A stretch of DNA of 64,000 nt, from NCBI GenBank assembly GCA_000004985.1, contig GG738853.1; one strand, given 5' to 3'. The notes under the pieces were generated by a model. It saw only the letters and a program-made list of their open reading frames with translations. It made no database searches and had not been told where the DNA came from. The position numbers and the translations under genes were made by a program. Source of the DNA: Naegleria gruberi (lineage: Eukaryota). Positions 6,061 to 33,644 of the stretch are shown piece by piece; position 1 is the first letter of the stretch; every line of letters starts with the position of its first letter.

Positions 6061-7545
6061 TGGTTCCTCATCATCATCATCAAGACCAAAGTATTCTTCT
6101 ACAATCTTGTATGCCTTCTTATAAATTTCTTCACTAGCGTGATCTGTCAAACTTTCAAGTTTATCAACACCTCCGGCTTCTTCAATAAAGTCTGTGTATG
6201 GATTGATACCATCAATATCATCAGCAATGCTTGAACCAGAAGCTAAAATATTTTCAATACCTTCCAAAGCAACGCCAACAACCTTGACATCCTTGACTGA
6301 GAGTAATTCGCAAAGTGGTTTAATACAACCTCTATCTACTAAATATCTTATTTGTTCATCTGAACCTCCTGATGTAGCGTTAGAAATAGCCCAAGCAGCT
6401 TCCTTCTTAACGTCAAAATCACCTGGTTGATCCAAGATTGCCACCAAAGGTGGAATAATATTAGCATCAATAATTGTTTGAATTTGATCCTTGTTTCCGG
6501 CAGTAATGTTAGAAATTGTCCAACAAGCTTCCTTCTTAATACTCTTCTTTTGATGTTGAAGAAGTTGACACAAAGATGGAAGAGCGCCACAATTCAAAAC
6601 GACTTGTGTTTGTTGATCATTACCAGTAACAATATTACCAATAGTTCTCAAGGCTGGTGTTTGAACGGATGGTTGTGGATGCATAAGTAATTCAACAAGT
6701 CTTCTAACAACATTTGAATCAATAACAGCTTGAATTCTATTGTTTGGACCGTCTGAGAGGTATGAAATTGCCCAACAAGCGTCAGTAAGAACTTCTTCGT
6801 CAGAGTTGTATAAGAGATGAGCCAAAGTTGGCAAGGCTGGAGCAACAAGATTAAAATCAGGGATTGGTTTACCTCTACAAAGGTTGGAAACAGTCCATGT
6901 AGCATTTCTGAGAATTGTAACTTTTGGTTGTTCAGAAATGATAGACAACAATGGAACCATAACTCCCATTTGTAAAATATAATCTCTACATTTAGCAGAA
7001 TCACCAGCAATATTACCCAAAGCCCAGATAGATTGTTCTCTAACATCATCATTTGGACATCCGAGAAGTTGAATAAAGATTGGAACAGCATTGCTTCTAA
7101 TGACTGTTTCAGTATGTTCGGAGGTACCTGAAGCAATGTTTGTGAGGGCCCAACAGGCTTCAAATTGGAGGGCAGCGTGGTCGACTCTTTGCAAAAATTC
7201 AACAAAGATTGGGACAACACCAGTAGAAATAACTTCATCGATAGGTGGACTCTTTTCCATGGACAAGAGTTTTCTGAATTGAACGGTAGCTTCTAATTGG
7301 AGTGTTGGATTACCAGACTTGACTTGTTCGAGAAGGAGTGGAAGTTGGTTAAGTTTTTCTTGGATGAGAGGATCGTGAATTGTTGCGCCTGTTGTGTTTT
7401 CCTTTCTTCTCTTTTGCAAGAGTTCATCTCTCATCTTCTTTCTGAGAGATGATTGTTTATCCATTCTCTTTATTTTACCATCTTCTGCGCTGAGTGTTGA
7501 CTTTAGGTTTTTTCTAGTTGGTGTCTTTTGATTGCTGGAGTACAT
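5989..7545 (-). CDS. importin subunit alpha (karyopherin alpha), paralog A, single exon, 518 aa
   Basis: Real ATG start (plus strand 'cat' at 7543-7545). The N-terminal IBB domain is basic (KRMDKQSSLRKKMRDELLQKRRKE) and is followed by ARM repeats (WALTNIASGTSEHTETVIRSNAVPIFIQLL ... WAISNATSGG). The acidic C-terminal tail is typical of importin-alpha. Confidence 0.85.
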   Translation of the reverse strand: MYSSNQKTPTRKNLKSTLSAEDGKIKRMDKQSSLRKKMRDELLQKRRKENTTGATIHDPLIQEKLNQLPLLLEQVKSGNPTLQLEATVQFRKLLSMEKSPPIDEVISTGVVPIFVEFLQRVDHAALQFEACWALTNIASGTSEHTETVIRSNAVPIFIQLLGCPNDDVREQSIWALGNIAGDSAKCRDYILQMGVMVPLLSIISEQPKVTILRNATWTVSNLCRGKPIPDFNLVAPALPTLAHLLYNSDEEVLTDACWAISYLSDGPNNRIQAVIDSNVVRRLVELLMHPQPSVQTPALRTIGNIVTGNDQQTQVVLNCGALPSLCQLLQHQKKSIKKEACWTISNITAGNKDQIQTIIDANIIPPLVAILDQPGDFDVKKEAAWAISNATSGGSDEQIRYLVDRGCIKPLCELLSVKDVKVVGVALEGIENILASGSSIADDIDGINPYTDFIEEAGGVDKLESLTDHASEEIYKKAYKIVEEYFGLDDDDEEPQTTQNNQFVFTGMQQNNTNFNFE

Positions 7546-7600
7546 TCTTATTTACACTTGTTGAGTTATTTTTTTTCTTCGTGGAAATTATTTTTGAACA

Positions 7601-7609
7601 CGCGCCAAA
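7601..7609 (-). promoter_or_regulatory. E2F-like motif TTTGGCGCG, 56-64 bp upstream of importin-alpha A ATG
   Basis: Plus strand cgcgccaaa at 7601-7609 reads TTTGGCGCG on the gene strand. It is a GC-rich 9-mer in an AT-rich divergent promoter. The same core recurs upstream of importin-alpha paralog B (14391-14399) and in the 11238-11367 promoter. Confidence 0.4.
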
Positions 7610-7874
7610 TGGTTTTTGAAGTTTTGTAAAGCATTCCGTCCAACAGTGGATTTTGTCTTGCCAAAAAGATTCTCGAGAGATGACAGCCAGAATAAAAGTA
7701 TTAATACATTTGTTTCACTGTACAATCTTTGAAATAAAGAATGATGGTCCAAAGTTTCAAAAAACAAATTGAATTAGGAACAACTGAATGTCATTTTGAA
7801 GGATATTGAGCTTTCTTTTAGAATGACCGTTAATAATTTAAAAATTGATATTTATTGCCAATTACTTGAAAAAA

Positions 7875-8927
7875 ATGAAAAATGAGCTAGAACCAAAGAG
7901 AAAAAAGATAAAACGAGAGTTTAGCTTGCCAAGTGAAATAATTATATTAATAATTGAATATTCGGCTTGCAACACCAAAATATTGACTAAATTTTCTTTA
8001 ATTAATAATCAATTTCATTCAATAATTTATGACAGCTCTTATGGATTGTGGGATCATTTACTTGTGAGATATCCCTTCCGAATGAATCCTCCGAATTTAT
8101 CAATTATTAAAAAAATATATTTCGATTTGGAGGAAGATGATGAAGTTGATGTAAAATTTACTAGAGTTCAAGAGTTTACTTTTAAAAATGATTCTAAGGA
8201 GTGTATTACATTGATTGTCAATTGTATCAATTCTGAACAAATATCCAAAGTTACATTCTTTGGAGAGACGAGACCAAGCCTTGTGAATTATTTAATAGAT
8301 CATTTCTCAAATCTTAGAGAGTTGGTACTGAATGATTTTGATTTCCAAGAGTGGGATGGGGAATATGATTTTTCTTTCAAACAAACCCCTTTGCTTGAAA
8401 GTTTTGTTTTTGTGGAGGAAACTGACGAATACTCTGGTTGCTACAACGAACCAAATGATACAAATTTCTTCTTTAATGTATTTACAAAGTATTCATTTAG
8501 CAATCTTCAAAAAATTTGGTTTGAACCATATTATTCTAATATTGAATTATTCAAGTTTGTGGAACAAATCAAACATCTCAATTCTCTAAAGCATTTGCAA
8601 GTGACATTATCCTTATGGGATTTTACACCAATTCCATCCTATGCAACTTTGCCACCATTGATTGAGGAAATTCAATTCAAATGTGCTTTTAAAGTATTTG
8701 CAAAATTCCTAATTGCTTACTTTAATCATCCAAAGGTTTACATTCAGTTTTCTCCCTCAGAACATTTCCTTGGAGATACAAGTATTCAGTTTATGACCAC
8801 TGATGAGCTTATTGAAGAATTGATAATGGATAAGGAAAGAAAAGAAGAGCTTAAAAGTTTGATTAATGAAAAAAGATATTTGGGAAAAATTGAATGTATG
8901 GATAAATCGTACAGTGGATCTGAATAA
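7875..8927 (+). CDS. hypothetical protein with N-terminal F-box-like region; the real ATG is at 7875 because the track start 7845 is a TTG
   Basis: The codon at 7845-7847 is ttg. The first ATG in frame is in aaaaaaATGaaaaatgag at 7875. The N-terminus LPSEIIILIIEYSACNTKILTKFSLINNQFHSIIY fits an F-box-like profile. The rest is unrecognised. Confidence 0.4.
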   Translation: MKNELEPKRKKIKREFSLPSEIIILIIEYSACNTKILTKFSLINNQFHSIIYDSSYGLWDHLLVRYPFRMNPPNLSIIKKIYFDLEEDDEVDVKFTRVQEFTFKNDSKECITLIVNCINSEQISKVTFFGETRPSLVNYLIDHFSNLRELVLNDFDFQEWDGEYDFSFKQTPLLESFVFVEETDEYSGCYNEPNDTNFFFNVFTKYSFSNLQKIWFEPYYSNIELFKFVEQIKHLNSLKHLQVTLSLWDFTPIPSYATLPPLIEEIQFKCAFKVFAKFLIAYFNHPKVYIQFSPSEHFLGDTSIQFMTTDELIEELIMDKERKEELKSLINEKRYLGKIECMDKSYSGSE

Positions 8928-9264
8928 TTATCTGTATAAAACAGTCAACTGATAAACATTCAGATTGAATAGTCTAAAAATGTTTTTTGTTGAATCGAAA
9001 CCAATTAGTAAATTGTATTAAAAAGAAACAAAAAACCTTTCCAGCTCTTCTCAAATTTCTTTCCTGAATCTTTTCTAGAAACACGTAAGAGTCACATGTC
9101 ACCATCATCATAATATAATCATAATCAAAAAAAACAAAAACATTATTTGTGATTACCACTGTCACATAATATCATCAGATTGAAGAAGTATCCAAAGTAG
9201 TGTACTACTAATCCCCTGTAAACAAACCATTCATTTACTGTTCCTGATTTGTGAGTGATTCGAA

Positions 9265-10566
9265 ATGGCAACTCTCACACAAGCAATACAAGAAGACACC
9301 ACAACAGATATCAAATCCGCTTGCAGTAATGCAACAACTCACCCTCATCATCAGCATTCCAATGAAGCTACAAAGAGCACGTCTCTGAACAAAACCAATA
9401 ATATTACCATCAAAGAAAATGAAACGATGAGTCTCAAGGAAGTCTCAAGTTTTTCAGTGATGGAGGGAATAAGTTTACAGCAACAACAAAACGGAACCCA
9501 ACATCAACAACATCAGCATAGCACGAGTACTTCTTCTTGTTGTTCAACATCATCGATAGAAAATTCAACAACACAAGATGATGATCAACATACAAAAGAG
9601 GATATTATTTCAAATAGTAATTTATTATCAAAGAAAATTATTGAATCATTGAATGATTCGAAATGTAATATAGAAAAGAGTAACGGAACATCTAAAGTTT
9701 TAATCTATTTAATTATCGGAATTTTTGTAGTTTTAATTTCTTATTTATTAATGATGAATGGGAGCAGTTTACTTCATCATGTTATCAATTTATCAATACC
9801 ATCAACAACAGCAGCTATTGCAAAATCTACAGACACTAATTTATTGAATAACGCAGTAACAGAAAAAGCAAATGTTACTAAAAAGAAGGAAAAAAAGAAT
9901 AAGATTAATATTCTTTCTGGATTGTATAAACCTGAAACTTATGGTATTGCTAAATATATTAAGCCATTAGAACCCAAGACAAGAATAATGGGAAGAAGAG
10001 AAATGTAAGTTTACAATATTAGATCAGTAATTTACCATTTTAGGATTAATTTTCCTCAACTTGGAGTTATTAATTTATTAGCAAAGGTAGATTCAGGTGC
10101 CAAGACAAGTTGTCTGGACGTGGCTAATATCAGATATAACAAGGCAGCAAAGACTATTAGTTTTGATGTTGTACTTGACAGACACAATAGAAGTATTGTT
10201 CAAACAATTCTTGATTTCCCATTTTCTAATACGACAAAAACTGTAATGTCTTCCAATGGACATATTTCGACACGTTATGTTTTGAAAACTATTGTTACAA
10301 TTGGTCCTGAATTCCAAGATCAAGTTGCAGAATTCACTCTTGTTGAAAGACACAAGCTTGCATGTCCTGTTTTAATTGGTAGAAATATTATTAGAATGGG
10401 AGGCTTTTTAGTTGACTGCAATAAGAAATTTATTACTGGTAAGAAACAGACAACTGTTGTAAAGGAGCCAATTCACATCCCTAACTTGTTGGACTATCCT
10501 ATTCCTTCACCTCCTAAAAAGAAGTCAAAGAAAAAGAAAATCAAGACTCCTGAGAAAAAGCAATAG
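9265..10566 (+). CDS. membrane protein with S/T/Q-rich N-terminal region, one TM helix and a C-terminal retropepsin-like (A2-type, DSGA) aspartic-protease domain; join(9265..10004,10044..10566)
   Basis: ATG at 9265. Track ORFs 9265..10008 and 10120..10566 share a frame and are joined by a 39-nt intron, GTAAGTTTACAATATTAGATCAGTAATTTACCATTTTAG, at 10005-10043 (the track stop TAA lies inside the GTAAGT). The second exon encodes LLAKVDSGAKTSCLD (D-S-G-A active-site signature) and a LIGRNIIRMGGFLVD flap/dimer-like segment. The first exon encodes the VLIYLIIGIFVVLISYLLMM TM helix. Confidence 0.5.
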
Positions 10567-24031: not shown

Positions 24032-24766
24032 ACTAAAATGAATAATGTAAACTTGTATTTTGGAAATGAAGAAGGCTTGTGTTTAGAGAAACGTGACTTC
24101 TCACTGTGTTCGTTAGTGGATGCAGGAGTGGTGTTGTGAATTTTTTTAATCCTTTCTTTTCCAACAGACGTTTGACATTGTAGAGTTTTAATTGAAGCCA
24201 ACCATTCTCTGACTGCATGAAACCAATCAACCACAATTTAGATAAACAACATTAAAGTAAACTGGCTATTGAGTGATGAAGATTGACTGATTATTCATTC
24301 GTACTAAGTCATGCACTCATTGGGAACATCACCTTTAATAACAAGTGTACAAATACATTGTTTTATTTCAATGAGAATCAAAATGTCTATTAAGATCAAT
24401 TTTGAACCAATCCTTGGATAGGCTGAAGAATAATTAAGAGGAGCAATAATTTCATTCCTCTTTCTGTTTTCTGTAATGTCTTAATTGGCTTTCTAATTGA
24501 TTTCAATCATGATGATACAATTTCATTAAATTAGCATAAAAACCACTCAATACATCCTCTTTTCCAAAAACTATTAATATGCTCTATTGCATCATTAATT
24601 TTTTTTAATTGTTATTGTTTTTATGAATATCTATTTGGAGGACGGAGAGAAATTTCCTGACTCCATCTCCGGTGGCTTCTTGCTGCACAAAGATGGCTCA
24701 TCTTACAAAAGCAATTTAAAAAATTTTAAAAATTTTAATAAAATAACAATTACACTTTATAAAAAA

Positions 24767-26188
24767 ATGAGCAGCAAGAACTCCACCACTACAAAGCCTC
24801 GTTTCAACTATCAAACCGTCGTTGGTGTGAACGGTCCTCTCGTCATTTTGGACAATGTTAAATTCCCAAAGTTTGCTGAAATCGTACACTTAACTCTGGG
24901 TAATGGACAAAAACGTAGAGGTCAAGTCTTGGAAATTGTTGGTAATAAAGCCGTCGTCCAAGTTTTTGAAGGAACATCAGGTGTTGATGCCAAGAATACT
25001 ACAGTTGAATTTACTGGTGATGTCTTGAAGATGCCAGTTTCTGAAGATATGTTAGGAAGAATCTTCAACGGATCAGGAAAGCCAATCGATAATGGTCCAC
25101 CAGTCTTGGCTGAAGAATTTTTGGATATTCAAGGTCAACCTATTAATCCATTTGCTCGTCTCTATCCACAAGAAATGATCCAAACCGGTATTTCTGCTAT
25201 TGATACTATGTGTTCTATTGCCAGAGGTCAAAAGATTCCAATTTTCTCTGGTTCCGGTCTTCCACACAATGAAATTGCTGCTCAAATCTGTAGACAAGCT
25301 GGTTTGGTTGGTAAGAAGGAAAACTTTGCTATTGTTTTTGCTGCTATGGGTGTTAACCAAGAAACTGCTCGTTTCTTTAAGAGAGACTTTGAAGAAAATG
25401 GTTCTATGGAAAATGTTACACTTTTCTTGAACCTTGCCGATGACCCAACCATTGAAAGAATTATTACACCACGTTTGGCTCTTACAACAGCTGAATATTT
25501 GGCTTACGAATGTGGTTATCACGTTCTTGTTATTTTGACCGATATGAGTTCTTATGCCGATGCTTTGAGAGAAGTTTCTGCTGCCAGAGAAGAAGTCCCA
25601 GGTAGAAGAGGTTATCCAGGTTATATGTATACTGATTTGTCCACTATTTACGAAAGAGCTGGACGTGTTGTTGGTAAACCAGGTTCAATTACACAAATTC
25701 CAATTTTAACAATGCCTAACGATGATATTACTCACCCTATTCCTGATTTGACTGGTTATATTACAGAAGGTCAAATTTACGTCGATCGTCAATTACACAA
25801 CAGACAAATTTATCCACCTATTAACGTTTTGCCAAGTTTGAGTCGTTTGATGAAGAACGCTATTGGTGAAGGTTTCACAAGAGAAGATCACGGCAGTATT
25901 AGTAACCAATTGTATGCTGCTTATGCTATTGGTAAAGACGTTATGGCCATGAAGGCTGTCGTCGGTGAAGAAGCCCTTTCAGCTGAAGATCACTTGTATC
26001 TCGAATTTTTGGAAAAGTACGAAAGAAATTTCTTATCTCAAGGTTTCTATGAATCTAGAACCATTTTTGATTCTTTAGATAAGGCTTGGGAACTTGGTAG
26101 AATTTTCCCTAAGGAAATGTTGACCAGAGTCACTGAAGCCATCAAGGAAAAGTACTATCAAAGACAAGCCCCTACTGAAGAAAAATAA
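24767..26188 (+). CDS. V-type proton ATPase subunit B, 474 aa
   Basis: Near-colinear with yeast Vma2/human ATP6V1B ([23 protein letters not shown]...[36 protein letters not shown]...[19 protein letters not shown]...[19 protein letters not shown]). The conserved N-terminus starts at [13 protein letters not shown] (aaaaaaATGagc at 24767). The track ORF begins at an upstream in-frame ATG (24623) that adds 48 non-conserved residues. Confidence 0.9.
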
Positions 26189-26292: not shown

Positions 26293-27741
26293 TTATCTCC
26301 TTCTAGGTGGATTCTTTCTCTTATTGAAAGCATTCTTGGAGTACAAATCGTAATCATCGTCTTGTTTCTTATTTAAAAGTTTGTTATTCTTCTTACTGAC
26401 ACCAAATCCTTTCAATTGATCTTCTCTATAAATTGGATCCTTATGATATTTTCCTCCCTTTGGAATTGGGTTAGTATAAATTGTACCTCTCAAAGAAATC
26501 TTTGCTTTTGGATTATAGTAGAAATTGAGAGTACCATCTTCATCCATAACACAGGTAATTCTCTTAAGTGTTTCGTGTCCACAATTTGGACAGAATCTAC
26601 GTTCAACATCAGGAACAATAGTATAACAACATGTACAACGTTTAACCCATTGAGAAAGGTATTTGATTCTGAAACCATCAACTGAAACAAGGTTAAGACC
26701 CATATGGGCAAGAACGTGTTGCACAGAAAAATCTGATGTGACACAACCAACCTTATGTTCAACACCAGTCTGTTGAGGAGCAAGTCTTCCAACATATTTG
26801 ATGGCACCAACCTTTTCTTCTGGCTTTGTGGCAACTGGTTTGGTTTCAGTATTTTCAGATCCTTCTTCTTGAATTTCAATTTCTTCTGATTGATCTTCAG
26901 ATTTTTGTTCAGTTTCTTGAGTTGAAAAATCATCAGTCTTTGCTACAGACCATGAAGTATCCTTATTCAAGTTATTGGTTCTTTCCTTATATTCCTTGAT
27001 ATTTTCTGGTGTAATCCATTCTCCATCATCTTCATCATCTTCTTCCTCTTCAACAACCTTTTCTTCAGTATCAGCTTCTTCTTCTTCAGCTGTTACATCA
27101 CTTCTTTGAGAACCAACTGGTTTATCTTCCATCTTATTTCTCAATTCAGAATATGCAAGAGGTGTAGAACATTTAATACCAGCAGCAATATTAAGAGATT
27201 TTGGTTCAGGTTTCAAATTCTTTGTTCCGTTCATTTCCTTTTCAATTGTTAAAGTTAAAGCAATAATGCCAATATCAGTAGCAGATAAATTAGCATAGTC
27301 ACCAGTCTTTTTGGCATATCTAGAAACAGTTTTGATATCATCTTCAGTTGGTTCACGAACGTGAATATCAAAAGGAAGTGTAAGAAGGATATGTCTCGAT
27401 CTAGAGTCTTTAATTTCATTCAAAACTTGTGGAGTGGTGATAAATTTACTACCATGTTTTTCAATCTTCATATAATTAATAAAAGCACCAGCATCAAGTA
27501 CAAGAATTCTTTCATTATCAAAAGAAAGTGCTGATACATCCTCCTGTTCTTCATATTTAGAATAATTCAAAAATCCTCCACTTGTTTTTTCCGATGTTGT
27601 TGTTGTACTACTACTATTATCAGTTATTAAATTTTGCAAACTCATCTCTGTTGGTGGCTTGACCACAGCCTTTTGTTCCGAAACAATAGGTTGTTTAATC
27701 AATTCTTCATCAACGACCAAAGGTATTCCCCAAGCACTCAT
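26293..27741 (-). CDS. NOB1-like endonuclease (PIN domain + C-terminal zinc ribbon), 482 aa
   Basis: PIN domain (ILVLDAGAFINYMK...PQVLNEIKDSRSRHILLTLPFDIHVREPTEDDIKTVSRYAKKTGDYANLSATDIGIIALTL). Zn-ribbon (CTCCYTIVPDVERRFCPNCGHETLKRITCVMDEDG). Acidic linker. This is the NOB1 architecture. Confidence 0.75.
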   Translation of the reverse strand: MSAWGIPLVVDEELIKQPIVSEQKAVVKPPTEMSLQNLITDNSSSTTTTSEKTSGGFLNYSKYEEQEDVSALSFDNERILVLDAGAFINYMKIEKHGSKFITTPQVLNEIKDSRSRHILLTLPFDIHVREPTEDDIKTVSRYAKKTGDYANLSATDIGIIALTLTIEKEMNGTKNLKPEPKSLNIAAGIKCSTPLAYSELRNKMEDKPVGSQRSDVTAEEEEADTEEKVVEEEEDDEDDGEWITPENIKEYKERTNNLNKDTSWSVAKTDDFSTQETEQKSEDQSEEIEIQEEGSENTETKPVATKPEEKVGAIKYVGRLAPQQTGVEHKVGCVTSDFSVQHVLAHMGLNLVSVDGFRIKYLSQWVKRCTCCYTIVPDVERRFCPNCGHETLKRITCVMDEDGTLNFYYNPKAKISLRGTIYTNPIPKGGKYHKDPIYREDQLKGFGVSKKNNKLLNKKQDDDYDLYSKNAFNKRKNPPRRR

Positions 27742-28119: not shown

Positions 28120-28416
28120 TTTGTTTGTCCCACTCCATTAAAAGTTATCACTTCTTTAGCAATTATTTAAGATTTAATTAAATTTAAAGATTATTTAAAT
28201 ATATTTAAAAAATGTCTCAATCGCTGATATCATTTGTTATTGCTCCATCATTTATTGTGAGTGCAGCTATTGCTTTCTTTAATGTGTAGGTACTCCATAA
28301 TTTTCATGAGAAAGTAAAGGATTTGAAGAGCATTCCGACAATTAAATTCAACAGAGGAGGAACAAGATTCATCAACAAATCAAAACCAATTATCGGAACC
28401 TCAGTTTGTTTCATTG

Positions 28417-28839
28417 ATGGCTGAACCATCTCCTAATTCAACAAAAGTTGTGGAGGAAATGAGTAAGACACAATCTAGTAAAATATCAAATGGAAGATCG
28501 ACACTGGATAGGGATGTTGCCTTTGTTATGGGACAAGCTGAAATGCCATTGACTGTCTATGAGAGTCCACTCATGGTTTCATACAGAGAGTTTCAAAACA
28601 TGAAACGTGACGACAATTCAGATGGATACTACCTTGTACAGAGGAAAGTTATTTCTAATGAGGAAAATTCAAACAAATCAAAGAAAAAACAAAGGAAATC
28701 AAATTTGGATCAATCAATAGAACAATTATTCAAGGATGAGGGAGAGGGAAGTGAAGTATTATTATTGTATGGAAGAGGACCTGTTTTCAAATTGGATAAT
28801 AATGCCTATGCTGATAGATATCTTGGATTTGATGATTAA
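28417..28839 (+). CDS. hypothetical protein (~140 aa); the track start 28414 is a TTG and the first ATG is 28417
   Basis: Open frame with non-repetitive sequence (…VAFVMGQAEMPLTVYESPLMVSYREFQNMKRDDNSDGYYLVQRKV…). The frame is also open ~90 nt upstream, so an upstream exon is possible. Confidence 0.3.
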   Translation: MAEPSPNSTKVVEEMSKTQSSKISNGRSTLDRDVAFVMGQAEMPLTVYESPLMVSYREFQNMKRDDNSDGYYLVQRKVISNEENSNKSKKKQRKSNLDQSIEQLFKDEGEGSEVLLLYGRGPVFKLDNNAYADRYLGFDD

Positions 28840-28889: not shown

Positions 28890-30646
28890 TTATTCTTGTT
28901 CTTCGGCATCATAAATTTGAGGTCTAGATGAGGATTGTTGTTCTCTTCTCAACTTGAGAGTTTCATCATATCTCTTCTTTTCTTCAAGATATTTACTTTC
29001 GAAAATGTTGAGTTTGATTTCTGTCACTTGTTCCATACATTCCCTAATTTCTTGGAGGACATTATTCTTGACCTTCTTCTTAGTATTTACTGTTGGTTCC
29101 AACTTTTTGATAAGCTTTGTAAGAACCTTTTCTTGAACCTTATCATCCTCCCAATCAAAGTAACCAGAAACAACTATTTCAAGTCAGTTATCAATCAATT
29201 AAATAAAAACTTACATTCAGAGTAAAGCTTATTTGTTTCCTTTTGGAGTGGGAGAACACCTTGAGCAAAATATTCCTTCTTGGTTGGATACTTTTCTCTC
29301 AGTTCTGTTCCCTTTTCAATTATCTTTTGACAGAATGAATTCAATGCATTCCAAAAGTTACTGACGAAATCTTCCAACTCAGTTTTCATTTCCTTAGTTT
29401 GCAAATTACTTTGAATGTCATCTACGGTATTTTGCAAAACAGCCCACCAAATATCAGTGTCTGAAATCTTCTTATTATCAGTTTTGCAAGAGTGGAGTTC
29501 GAGATACCAACTACATTTGATTTTGTACATTTTTCCAGATGGTTCGAATCTAATGACGAAACCTTCAATTCCAATTTGTTCCTTGATGAATTTCAGCACA
29601 TTTTCCAAATTTGTTTCAGAATTCAAACTTGCAAGTGGTTTCGTGTATTCTACGCCGAATTCTTCGCATGATCTTCTAGTTTCTTCATAGGAAACATAAT
29701 GACCATCATAGTTATTTCTGATGCCAAGTAACACTAATGAAGTGTGGTCATATAATAATACAATTTGGTTTTGAGGAGAGACCAATTCAAAGATTGGACT
29801 GTATCCCTTCTTGATCCAATAAATGGAAAATTCAATGAATGATTTAAACTTTCCTGTATAACTATCTGATAATCTGTATTCATCATTTGACATATCAATA
29901 ACTGGGAATTGTGACGCATCATTACTTCCATAAATAAATGCTTCTGCTAATTTTGATGGATCAGTAACCCAACCCATTTTAGTTCTAAATCTCAAAAGTC
30001 TCTTGTTGGCATCATTCAAACTTGGTTCTTTTGCAAGAATTGAACAAACCATAGTACCGTCCTATAATGAAATTATTTAAATAATTAAAATATTAAAGTG
30101 ACATACCATCTTATCTAAAATAATGTGATTTTCAGTAAAATCAATTGAAGTTGGTTCAGTTTCTGGTTTTTCACCAACATTGAAAAACTTTTGTAAACCT
30201 CTTGATGCACAAGCTCCGGTTTCCAAGTCATAACATACTCCTCTGCATTCTCTCGCAAACAAATAGGCAGCTCTTCTAATTTCACTAATTTCGTCATCCA
30301 ATTTTCTTTCTGACAAATCTCCAAAAGTAAACCATGTCATGTAATTGTAATTGAAAAAGGCCATATTATTTTCATGTTTTTCAACATATGGGAATGGTTG
30401 CTTCAATGCTTCCAAATCATTCCTTACAATTTTCAAAGCAGTTCTCAGATCTTTAATATCATCAAGGAGAGGAAATAATCCATGAGTTTTACTCAAAATA
30501 GATTCCAATCTTGATTGTTCCACACCAGCCAATAATTGTTCCTTTGTAACTTTTGGCAGTGCATGGAAAGGATTAGCCTTTGGTACCACTTCGGATGTTG
30601 TTGATGATGATGGCACAGATGTTTCTGCTGATGGTTGTTGAGACAT
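28890..30646 (-). CDS. ATP-dependent RNA ligase-like nucleotidyltransferase (KxDG motif I, EGFVIR motif IV, KMYKIK motif V) with N-terminal domain and C-terminal extension; join(30646..30107,30061..29215,29173..28890), ~556 aa
   Basis: Three track ORFs (30077..30646, 29195..30052, 28890..29102) join in frame across a 45-nt intron GTATGTCACTTTAATATTTTAATTATTTAAATAATTTCATTATAG (30062-30106) and a 41-nt intron GTAAGTTTTTATTTAATTGATTGATAACTGACTTGAAATAG (29174-29214). Both track stops sit inside the donor sites. The spliced protein has ...TENHIILDK-MDGTMV (K-x-D-G, lysine at about residue 182), then IEGFVIRFEPSGKMYKIK. This is the covalent nucleotidyltransferase signature of RNA/DNA ligases. Motif I lies after a ~180-aa N-terminal domain, as in the Naegleria NgrRnl (Rnl5) type. 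Confidence 0.6.
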
Positions 30647-31223
30647 TTTTTGTATTTTAAGTTCACGTCTTTACCGGTGCTCGGTAATGGTTTTATTGAT
30701 ATGTGATTCACTTCTGCAAGTTGTAAATTGAATATCATGATGCACAATTCACAAACGGCTCCAACCTGAAGGACTTCATTTTCAAATCAATACACAAATG
30801 GAAAAAGGGTAAGGTTTCTGTGGTAATTATTCGAAATTAACAGAGTTTAAATAATGTATCCTCTGATCAGATTAACACGGTAAATCATTGGAAATGAAAC
30901 TGACCAATATTTGTCTACTATTTTAATGGATACTCTGTTGCATCATTGGTAGCTTCCAGCCAATAAGTACAGTTTAATAGGTGGTTCAAAGATTCGAATA
31001 AGACAAGCAAAAGCTAAAGAAATCCACAAATAAAAGACACAGCACTAATACTGATACGCTATTAATGAACGTTCTTCAGTATTGAATTGGAATTTCTTAT
31101 CCATCGATGTCTAGATATTATTCAGTCTAACGTAAGACTTTCATGAGTCAAAAATAAAAAACTCTTGCTAAATGAAACATTAATTCATTATCAACCAATT
31201 CTTGGGAGTTTTTCGTAGTCGCA

Positions 31224-33644
31224 ATGCACCCGATTTCGGAGATGATTTTTAAAATTATTCAACTGCTAAAAATGAAACAAGAGCCTTCATCCTCAACGTT
31301 GCTTGTTGCATCATCACCTACATTGTCGGATTCGTGCTCTCTTGGAGGTGAAGCCTCTTCTGCAGTAACAAGATTGGATGGAGAAGAGTTGAAGAGTCAA
31401 AGTGATAATAATTTTCTTGTTGATGGCTCGGGTGATGGTAATGAAGAAGAAGAGGATGAGGTTGTTGTGGTCCGAAGAATGAAGAAGAAAAAGAAAAATT
31501 CAAATAGATCCTCTTCGTCAACATCGCCTATTAGTGTTGCATCATCGGATGAAATTGGAGAGGAAATTAAGAAAATGAGTATTGATGAAAAAGTTAGCAA
31601 GACATTGTTGAGTGTTTCGAATCATGATGAAGAGGCAGGCTTCACTTGTCCTTCATTGTCGAATTCTCCACCATCATATGCATTGTCACCAATGAAAAAT
31701 AGAGTAGTTTCATCAAATGATGGTGTAAATGGAGATATTCGTTGTACAACAAGATGGATTGATTGTTTGATGGTTGCTACATTTGACATTGAACTTGGAC
31801 AAAAAATTCATCAAGTATATCCTAGTGACTATCCTATTTCTCAATCTCAATTATCAGATATTGGTAGTGTATCTTAATATTAATATTGATCGTTAATTTA
31901 TTAATATTTGTGACATTTCGAATAGCATATCTATCATTTCCCGATGGAAATAATCAAACTTCAACCTCAGGAGCATCATCAGAAAAGCCAACTACATGCA
32001 CCTGGTCATTTAGGACGAGTGACGACCTTTTTGGTTATGTACATTTTTTACAACAACAAGATTCAACTGTAAAACGAGGTTGTTTAATGACTTCAGTCAT
32101 TCTTCTAACCAAATATCCTTTCATCAAATTGTACAGATACATGGTTCAAAAAATTGCCATGAACTACTTTTCAGAAGTTGAGAAACAAAAACAAACAAAG
32201 AAAAACTCATCAGAATCAGTTTTGAGTGCTTCTAACATTTTTGCACAAGTTATGAAGCAAGTGAACAATTGGGTTCTTCCTAATGTAGATTCTCAATATG
32301 AATTGTCATTCTTTGAACAAAAGATTAAGTATAGATCTCCTCTATTTATTCCTTCATCTCAATCTTACCAAAATAAGATAAATCAATTGAAACCAAGAGA
32401 AGGAGGTGGTGTTTCATCCGTTACTCCTCTAAAGGAGAGATTATTAGGAAGAAAGTATCCATATCAGCAGGAGGTGAATGTATATAGGAACTTTATTAGT
32501 CATAGTTTGGAATCACTCGCTAAATTTTGGGAATTAGTAATAACTGGCGAACCTATACTAGTTTTGTCTCCAACACCTACACAATGTTGTGTTTCAGTTT
32601 TTTCACTTGTTTCAATGATTGCTCCAATACCGTACGGAGGCGATGTAAGACCATATTTTACTGTACATAATCAAGACTTTAAATACTTCTCTCAAATGGG
32701 AGGTCACCAAGGTTTCACATCAGCAATCGTTGGTGTGACCAATCCTTTCTTTGTTAAGGCCTATGAAAATGTAAGTAATATATCTCCCAATTCAAATATA
32801 TAATGAAATAATTCTATAGTGGCCACATATTATCACAGTAGGAAAGCAACACAATTCCAGTCCAGTGAAAAAATCAACCTCACCGCCAAGTACTTTCCAA
32901 AGTGCATTCTCAGCCAACAAAATTGTATCCTTCTTCACTAATGTTGACAATGAATCAAACGAAAGAAAACAGTTAATGTGGGACTATAAGGAAACATTCT
33001 TATCTAAGAAAAAGTCATTTATTGTAGATGATTTGGACATGTCAGGTATTAAATTATTAACTGAGGACATTAACGTTAGTGACAGAAGCTCTGCTGACAG
33101 TCTCAATAATGACCAAATTAGAAAATTCTTTGAACAATTGACCGAAGATTTCCTACACCCAATTCATCAATGTTTTGATACACTTGTTTGTTCCATGAAA
33201 ACTTTCATTGTACGATCGGAGCATGCAAAAGTTTTCAAGACTGAGAAATTTATCAACTATATCAAAAAGAATGGATATAATGAAAAGGTTTTCAAGGCCA
33301 AAAAGTCAGATGTATTTGAAATGTATAAGAGATTTGTCTACTCAACCAATTTTAAATCATTCATGGAACATAGATTAAGAGAAGCTTATGTAAATGATGT
33401 ACAACATACAGATATTGATGAATTTTTAAAGAATGAAAAATTCTCAGAAATTGACCTTATTGACCTCTTCCTACAAATCAAACAAGACTTGGAAGAAGAA
33501 ATGAAAACCTACGATGATGATGTCATTGTAACTCGTCTACAAGTTTTCCTATCTCAAATTCTTAAAAGATTACCAGATACTCTTAAATTGCATTTAGAGA
33601 GACAATTGAGTAATATGGTTGAAGACTTGAAAGATAGCTTTTAA
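31224..33644 (+). CDS. DENND6 (FAM116)-like DENN-domain protein; join(31224..31863,31926..32770,32820..33644), ~769 aa
   Basis: Three track ORFs join in frame. Intron 1 is ~62 nt (GTAGTGTATC...TTCGAATAG); an alternative donor 3 nt downstream is equally in frame. Intron 2 is 49 nt (GTAAGTAATATATCTCCC...TTCTATAG), with the track stop inside it. Conserved DENND6 blocks are present (VATFDIELGQKIHQVYP...YLSFPD; KAYEN-WPHIITVG). There is an S-rich acidic N-terminal extension. Confidence 0.65.

Follow-up and report, generated by a model that had tools for sequence, protein, structure and literature searches.

RNA ligase 1 of bacteriophage T4 (T4 Rnl1; RnlA, gp63; PDB 2C5U, 5TT6, and 9DO4) is the founder of the Rnl1 family and is composed of an N-terminal subdomain, a nucleotidyltransferase (NTase) core, and an all-helical C-terminal (C) domain (T4 residues ~255-374) that defines the Rnl1 clade. 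In yeast, the pair of T4 Pnkp and T4 Rnl1 reportedly rescues a trl1-delta strain. Arg54 and Lys75 of the T4 enzyme are essential and contact the ATP gamma-phosphate, and its C domain gives specificity for broken tRNA anticodon loops (PMC6379707). Other described relatives are the Rnl5 enzymes NgrRnl and DraRnl (PDB 5COT), which are without a C-terminal appendage after the NTase domain (PMC4408790), and the ligase domain of the fungal and plant tRNA ligase Trl1 (Rnl6; PDB 6N67 and 6N0T). NgrRnl comes from the amoeba Naegleria gruberi (XP_002669268.1; PMC4408790), for which seven Rnl1-family ligases and two RtcB ligases have also been listed (Unciuleac & Shuman 2015, PMC4408790). Our literature search found no report of a biochemically characterized eukaryotic stand-alone T4-type Rnl1, and no paper on the biochemical characterization of the listed N. 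gruberi Rnl1 paralogues or of the homologue in Acytostelium. Here, we analyzed a three-exon gene on the minus strand of a 64,000-nt stretch of N. gruberi contig GG738853.1 (assembly GCA_000004985.1), the whole of which is hereafter called the window. Its 556-amino-acid (aa) product very probably belongs to the Rnl1 family, and the gene is likely to be a vertically inherited N. gruberi gene for a stand-alone ATP-dependent RNA ligase of that family.

In terms of family assignment, T4 Rnl1 was the top match in every sequence and structure search. The Pfam profile RNA_lig_T4_1 (PF09511) matched aa 133-366 over its full length (profile positions 1-227) with E = 2.8e-27 and 96.5 bits against a cutoff of 28.3 bits, so that the match lies far beyond chance. 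The NCBIfam model of the T4 RnlA family (TIGR02308) was also matched (E = 4e-33), at 115 bits, far under its equivalog trusted cutoff of 242.25 bits. A phmmer search of PDB returned three T4 Rnl1 entries only (E ~ 1e-18), with no other match at E <= 10. When PDB was searched with a profile built from 22 homologous sequences, T4 Rnl1 was matched over its residues 7-366 at 3e-80, followed at lower ranks by fungal Trl1 ligase domains (2.6e-8 to 3e-4) and Rnl3 (6e-3). The hhalign comparison with T4 Rnl1 (taken from NC_000866) aligned aa 66-487 with residues 7-358 of the 374 in the T4 protein, with a probability of 100% and E = 1.3e-50. The structure of the 556-aa protein was predicted with AlphaFold2 (mean predicted local distance difference test [pLDDT] score, 84.4; predicted template modeling [pTM] score, 0.69), and a Foldseek search of PDB with this model ranked T4 Rnl1 first (1e-16), ahead of the Trl1 ligase domain (9e-8) and Rnl3 (1.5e-7), with weaker matches to REL1 (4e-5) and NgrRnl (1e-4, over approximately 240 columns). 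DNA ligases and capping enzymes ranked below these, and the profile and structure searches alike favored RNA ligases, which bears out the RNA-ligase identity proposed in an earlier note on this stretch.

The earlier note had assigned the protein to the NgrRnl/Rnl5 group and not to Rnl1, because of its layout, in which a module of approximately 180 aa precedes motif I; in such an NgrRnl/DraRnl-type nick-sealing ligase, the region beyond the NTase domain would be a novel C-terminal domain. The lysine-adenylyltransferase core fold and its motifs are indeed common to both groups, and in NgrRnl and DraRnl motif I lies at a similar distance from the N-terminus. However, every test (Pfam, NCBIfam, phmmer, profile, and hhalign) pointed to Rnl1, and neither the single sequence nor the 22-sequence profile retrieved an NgrRnl chain at E <= 10, although PDB contains many NgrRnl entries. 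The layout also reads differently once aligned: the first ~65 aa are a leader, and aa 66-178 align with the T4 Rnl1 N-terminal subdomain, including the equivalents of R54, K75, and F77, and do not form the distinctive N-terminal module of Rnl5, a putative oligonucleotide-binding (OB) fold. Moreover, the protein carries an Rnl1-type C-terminal appendage, which distinguishes it from the Rnl5 enzymes (PMC4408790), and NgrRnl itself is encoded by a different gene. The rankings in the sequence, profile, and structure searches ruled out an Rnl5 assignment, and we consider this reading extremely unlikely. The gene should therefore be filed under Rnl1 rather than listed as a second enzyme of the NgrRnl type, and the value of the present result is mostly that of a correction.

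The Trl1 ligase domain, which is eukaryotic and has an Rnl1-like adenylyltransferase domain, came second in both the structure and profile searches. The Mucorales 'sealing-only' Trl1 proteins, like the Naegleria protein, are stand-alone ligases, and their existence in eukaryotes (PMC10946435) would allow the gene to encode a Trl1/Rnl6-type tRNA-splicing ligase that joins 3'-OH,2'-PO4 and 5'-PO4 exon ends healed by separate enzymes. However, only the adenylyltransferase domain showed similarity to Trl1 (profile positions 36-239 of 382). A distinct C domain, with a proposed 2'-PO4 site, is the defining feature of the Rnl6 clade (PMC6379707), whereas the C domain of the Naegleria protein is not of the Rnl6 type: a profile built from this domain only matched residues 259-368 of T4 Rnl1 in PDB (E = 7e-9) and no Trl1 chain at E <= 10. 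The 556-aa protein contained no kinase (KIN) or cyclic phosphodiesterase (CPD) Pfam domain, and it therefore lacks the KIN/CPD fusion of Trl1, which the Mucorales sealing-only forms also lack; in addition, the two RtcB ligases of N. gruberi could serve tRNA splicing. A sealing-only Trl1 ligase is thus improbable as a reading of this gene, and the Trl1/Rnl6 assignment was ruled out because the C-terminal profile matched T4 Rnl1 alone. A 2'-PO4 requirement like that of Trl1 would not be expected for the Naegleria ligase.

The Naegleria protein shares the N-terminal subdomain, NTase core, and helical C domain of T4 Rnl1, with only about 25-27% identity and a length of 556 aa versus 374 aa. The additions relative to the T4 enzyme consist of the ~65-aa leader, an insertion at about aa 109-125 in the N-terminal subdomain (aa 66-178, corresponding to T4 residues 7-98), a further insertion at about aa 230-250 between motifs I and III, and a tail of ~66 aa. 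In the AlphaFold2 model, aa 1-25 of the leader, which are Ser/Thr-rich, are predicted to be disordered, and aa 26-65 form short helices predicted with high confidence (per-block pLDDT along the leader: 34, 39, 65, 94, 98, and 93). Some viral homologues can be aligned from aa 21-39 onward, i.e., into the leader.

The active site appears to be intact. The pairwise alignment with T4 Rnl1 equates R135 with R54, K153 with K75, F155 with F77, K179 with K99, D181 with D101, G182 with G102, and K208 with K119, and the motif III, IV, and V equivalences are given in Table 1; F154 also aligns with F76. The twelve mapped T4 active-site residues (R54, K75, F77, K99, D101, G102, K119, E159, E227, G228, K240, and K242) all have identical counterparts, and in the alignment of the 22 homologues 11 of these 12 are invariant or nearly so, the exception being K208; K179, D181, and G182 are invariant. 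The mapped T4 residues other than Arg54 and Lys75 are also reportedly essential, according to mutational studies by the Shuman laboratory. K179 is therefore predicted to be the AMP-accepting lysine, equivalent to K99 of T4, and nothing in the catalytic residues suggests a pseudo-enzyme.

With regard to the C-terminal region, the earlier note had described approximately 200 residues with no counterpart, ending in an acidic tail encoded by a separate 3' exon. About 185 residues follow motif V and ~120 of them make up the Rnl1-type C domain, which means that most of the supposed novel domain is the known C domain of Rnl1 and that only aa ~491-556 are lineage-specific. This tail had no Pfam match; AlphaFold2 predicts two helices in it (~499-513 and ~523-545), and its sequence has a KKKVK patch along with a short acidic terminus. 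The Naegleria, Willaertia, and Acrasis orthologues all carry this tail, as does another orthologous protein in our set (P0005); the viral or phage-like and metagenomic homologues, which are 350-470 aa long, lack it. The separate exon was confirmed, but exon 3 is not acidic overall: its charge is balanced (19 K+R versus 20 D+E), with acidity limited to the final ~12 residues.

Table 1. Features of the Rnl1-family ligase gene and neighboring genes in the window (positions are those of the window; minus-strand features of the ligase gene are written from their 5' end).
Feature	Position	Strand	Description
Exon 1	30646-30107	-	540 nt, aa 1-180; ATG at 30646; last residues K179-M180
Intron 1	30106-30062	-	45 nt, GTATGT...TAG, phase 0; interrupts motif I (KM/DG)
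Exon 2	30061-29215	-	847 nt, aa 181-462 and base 1 of codon 463; remaining NTase domain and most of the helical C domain
Intron 2	29214-29174	-	41 nt, GTAAGT...TAG, phase 1
Exon 3	29173-28890	-	284 nt, aa 463-556 and TAA stop at 28892-28890
N-terminal leader, aa 1-65	30646-30452	-	Precedes the part that aligns with T4 Rnl1
Rnl1-type adenylyltransferase domain, aa 66-371	30451-29489	-	N-terminal subdomain and NTase core; span contains intron 1
Motif I, K179-M-D-G182	30112-30056	-	Codons 30112-30107 and 30061-30056, with intron 1 between
Motif III glutamate, E272	29788-29786	-	Equivalent to T4 E159
Motif IV, E346-G-F-V-I-R351	29566-29549	-	E346/G347 equivalent to T4 E227/G228
Motif V, K357-M-Y-K360-I-K362	29533-29516	-	K360/K362 equivalent to T4 K240/K242
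All-helical C domain, aa 372-490	29488-29091	-	Homologous to the T4 Rnl1 C domain; span contains intron 2
C-terminal tail, aa 491-556	29090-28893	-	Lineage-specific; modeled with AlphaFold2
ORF resembling V-ATPase subunit B	24623-26188	+	
NOB1 homologue	26293-27741	-	PIN_6 and Zn_ribbon_NOB1
Terminal ORF of convergent gene	28414-28839	+	Ends 50 bp from the ligase stop (28839 versus 28890)
Spacer	30647-31223		577 bp, between the ligase gene and the divergent gene
Multi-ORF divergent gene	31224-33644	+	Weak Afi1 and SPA matches

The gene model itself was borne out. Splicing of the three minus-strand open reading frames (ORFs) across two short introns with canonical ends (28890-30646) gave a coding sequence of 1671 nt, the product of which matched the N. 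gruberi "hypothetical protein" NAEGRDRAFT_78709 (EFC47871.1, XP_002680615.1) from end to end with 100% identity; this protein is called 'T4 RNA ligase 1-like N-terminal domain-containing protein' in UniRef. The identity shows the window to be nuclear DNA of N. gruberi. The three-exon gene for a protein of ~556 aa, and the motifs KMDG, EGFVIR, and KMYKIK that the earlier note had read in it, were thus recovered with exact coordinates. No paper naming the gene was found in a literature search by locus tag and accessions.

Orthologues of the protein were found in N. lovaniensis (67% identity), Willaertia magna (62%), and Acrasis kona (33%), and the sequence KMDGTMVC around motif I was unchanged in all orthologue proteins compared. 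On L003, a Logan contig of a related amoeba, the ligase orthologue is followed by NOB1 and then V-ATPase subunit B, in the same order as in the window. Both introns occur at equal codon positions in this contig (intron 1, 48 nt, GTATGT..CAG; intron 2, 64 nt, GTAAGT..CAG), and splicing at both yields an unbroken orthologue of 566 aa. In all three exons, nucleotide identity with the L003 gene was highest at the second codon position and lowest at the third. In exon 3, the values were 0.67, 0.80, and 0.49 for positions 1, 2, and 3, respectively, indicating that the tail exon is under protein-coding constraint. A 100-aa protein from another source (P0059) had 74% identity to aa 464-555. The cross-species comparison and the existing gene model support the predicted splicing, and the sequences point to syntenic, intron-matched orthologues across the Heterolobosea, forming an orthologue group with a tail of ~66 aa. 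The protein listed for L003 4001-5635 (P0003) is a prokaryote-style miscall of this eukaryotic gene, with a false extension at its upstream end, intron 1 read in frame (VCMIVVFSHVLTQKLQ), and a stop within intron 2.

The Rnl1 family as a whole is mostly of viruses or phages. The full HMMER scan identified 4280 cluster representatives at E <= 1e-3; separately, 1626 phage records matched, and there were 370 confirmed viral contig matches. In a rough neighbor-joining tree, constructed without bootstrap support, the five heterolobosean orthologues formed one clade. This clade lay within a 14-member subgroup together with the N. gruberi paralogue EFC42678.1 and several metagenomic sequences, two of which were on virus-like contigs. 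This predominance of phages and viruses, and the location of the best non-heterolobosean relatives on virus-like metagenome contigs, could be taken to mean that the gene is not a functional host gene but an assembly contaminant, a viral or phage sequence inserted recently, or a pseudogene in decay. Against this stand the two spliceosomal-type introns with positions conserved between species, the conserved synteny with NOB1 and V-ATPase B, the host-like GC content of ~33%, which is the same across the whole window, the presence of orthologues in four heterolobosean genera, and the intact catalytic residues and codon-position constraint pattern. A non-host or decaying origin is hardly credible in this light, and the gene is a bona fide, vertically inherited, and already modeled nuclear gene of N. 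gruberi. Because its nearest non-heterolobosean relatives are on virus-like contigs, viruses and protists may have exchanged such genes in the distant past.

In the inventory of N. gruberi ligases, EFC47871.1 is not among the seven Rnl1 accessions of PMC4408790, whereas its paralogue EFC42678.1 is, and EFC47871.1 would be an eighth Rnl1 paralogue of N. gruberi that this inventory lacks. The gene thus adds one member to the seven Rnl1-type ligases reported; that the family is expanded in N. gruberi was known before. The statement in the earlier note that eukaryotic stand-alone RNA ligases are rare fails for N. gruberi, in which Rnl1-type ligases are abundant (PMC4408790). EFC42678.1 (NAEGRDRAFT_50279) has 33% identity to the protein over aa 121-443 and shares the insertion between motifs I and III; its alignment ends at aa 443, so that no sharing of the tail or of the distal part of the C domain is visible. 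The same insertion is found in the dictyostelid homologue XP_012754280.1 of Acytostelium subglobosum (36% identity over aa 132-395). A tblastn search detected no tandem paralogue elsewhere in the window, and a scan of genome contigs with the single protein gave no relatives, which is expected of a search seeded with exact peptides. A paper on a Naegleria giant virus mentions viral tRNA-repair genes and does not mention the ligase gene.

From the conserved catalytic residues, we think it likely that the protein is catalytically active as an RNA ligase. According to the established mechanism of Rnl1, K179 would react with ATP to form a ligase-(lysyl-N)-AMP intermediate, the AMP would be moved onto the 5'-PO4 of an RNA to give the adenylylated RNA (AppRNA), and attack by an RNA 3'-OH would seal the break. 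The preferred substrates would probably be breaks in tRNA-like stem-loops, by analogy with the anticodon-loop specificity conferred by the C domain of T4 Rnl1, and repair of tRNA loops as the physiological role is, on this analogy, an evenly balanced proposition. End healing would be left to separate enzymes, because the protein has no fused kinase or phosphoesterase domain and none was recognized among the neighboring genes scanned. The tail may serve in localization or partner binding, which is speculative. It is also conceivable, and we put this forward tentatively, that the Heterolobosea keep, by vertical descent, a T4-type Rnl1 that has retained the C domain for tRNA specificity and would be the sealing arm of a eukaryotic cell's repair pathway for broken tRNAs or stem-loops, with the conserved tail coupling it to a separate healing enzyme or compartment.

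Several points weigh against the favored reading. The shortfall from the TIGR02308 equivalog cutoff marks the protein as a divergent subfamily member, which need not be functionally equivalent to T4 RnlA and may differ from it in substrate specificity. The residue corresponding to T4 K119 (K208) is Glu in the orthologue P0005. In contrast to T4 Rnl1, the ligase gene is nuclear and contains introns, and it has no adjacent Pnkp and no PrrC-type context: no Pnkp-type end-healing gene was recognized among the neighboring window genes scanned, and there is no anticodon-nuclease context. An Rnl1-fold enzyme with another job, such as the repair of stress-induced mRNA or rRNA breaks, RNA circularization, or action in a complex recruited by the tail, would fit the low equivalog score, the protist-specific insertions and tail, and the presence of at least eight Rnl1 paralogues in N. 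gruberi, which implies sub-functionalization. However, the C domain, which is the source of tRNA specificity in T4 Rnl1 (PMC6379707), has been kept and is recognizably homologous, and there is no positive pointer to any alternative substrate. We therefore regard such a role as rather unlikely, and a stand-alone Rnl1-family RNA ligase remains our preferred reading.

Among annotated phages, the best match was the RNA ligase of Roseobacter phage DSS3P8 (AMO44163.1), with 28% identity over aa 35-485, including part of the leader. Its gene shares one gene block with a polynucleotide kinase gene, from which it lies ~1.9 kb downstream (L002 1644-2195 and 4052-5808), and is directly followed by a gene annotated 'NK superfamily, AAA domain'; the block looks like a set of heal-and-seal RNA repair genes. 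The metagenome contigs that carry the best-scoring non-heterolobosean relatives contain many small ORFan genes. On contigs from two samples (L085 1484-3424 and L086 767-2707), a 2OG-Fe(II) oxygenase gene (PF13532) comes next after the ligase gene, and the 169-kb contig of another relative (L087 5001-6422) has a faint DNA_pol_B match. These contigs look viral, and perhaps derive from giant viruses.

In the genomic neighborhood of the ligase gene (Table 1), no tRNA genes were present in the window, and the terminal ORF of the convergent gene had no significant Pfam match. The NOB1 homologue was identified by its PIN_6 and Zn_ribbon_NOB1 domains (E ~ 1e-29 and 1e-25), and the counterparts of NOB1 and V-ATPase B in L003 are at 7327-8898 and 9142-9635. 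The earlier note had placed the ligase gene head-to-head with a DENND6-like gene, and a divergent multi-ORF gene does adjoin it. The end of the first ORF of this gene matched the start of Pfam Afi1 weakly (E = 0.017), and the second ORF matched SPA with E = 2.8e-4 and 21.3 bits against a cutoff of 22 bits. The order of Afi1 followed by SPA is presumably that of DENND6/Afi1-type proteins, and the DENND6-like label, derived from these sub-threshold matches, is plausible.

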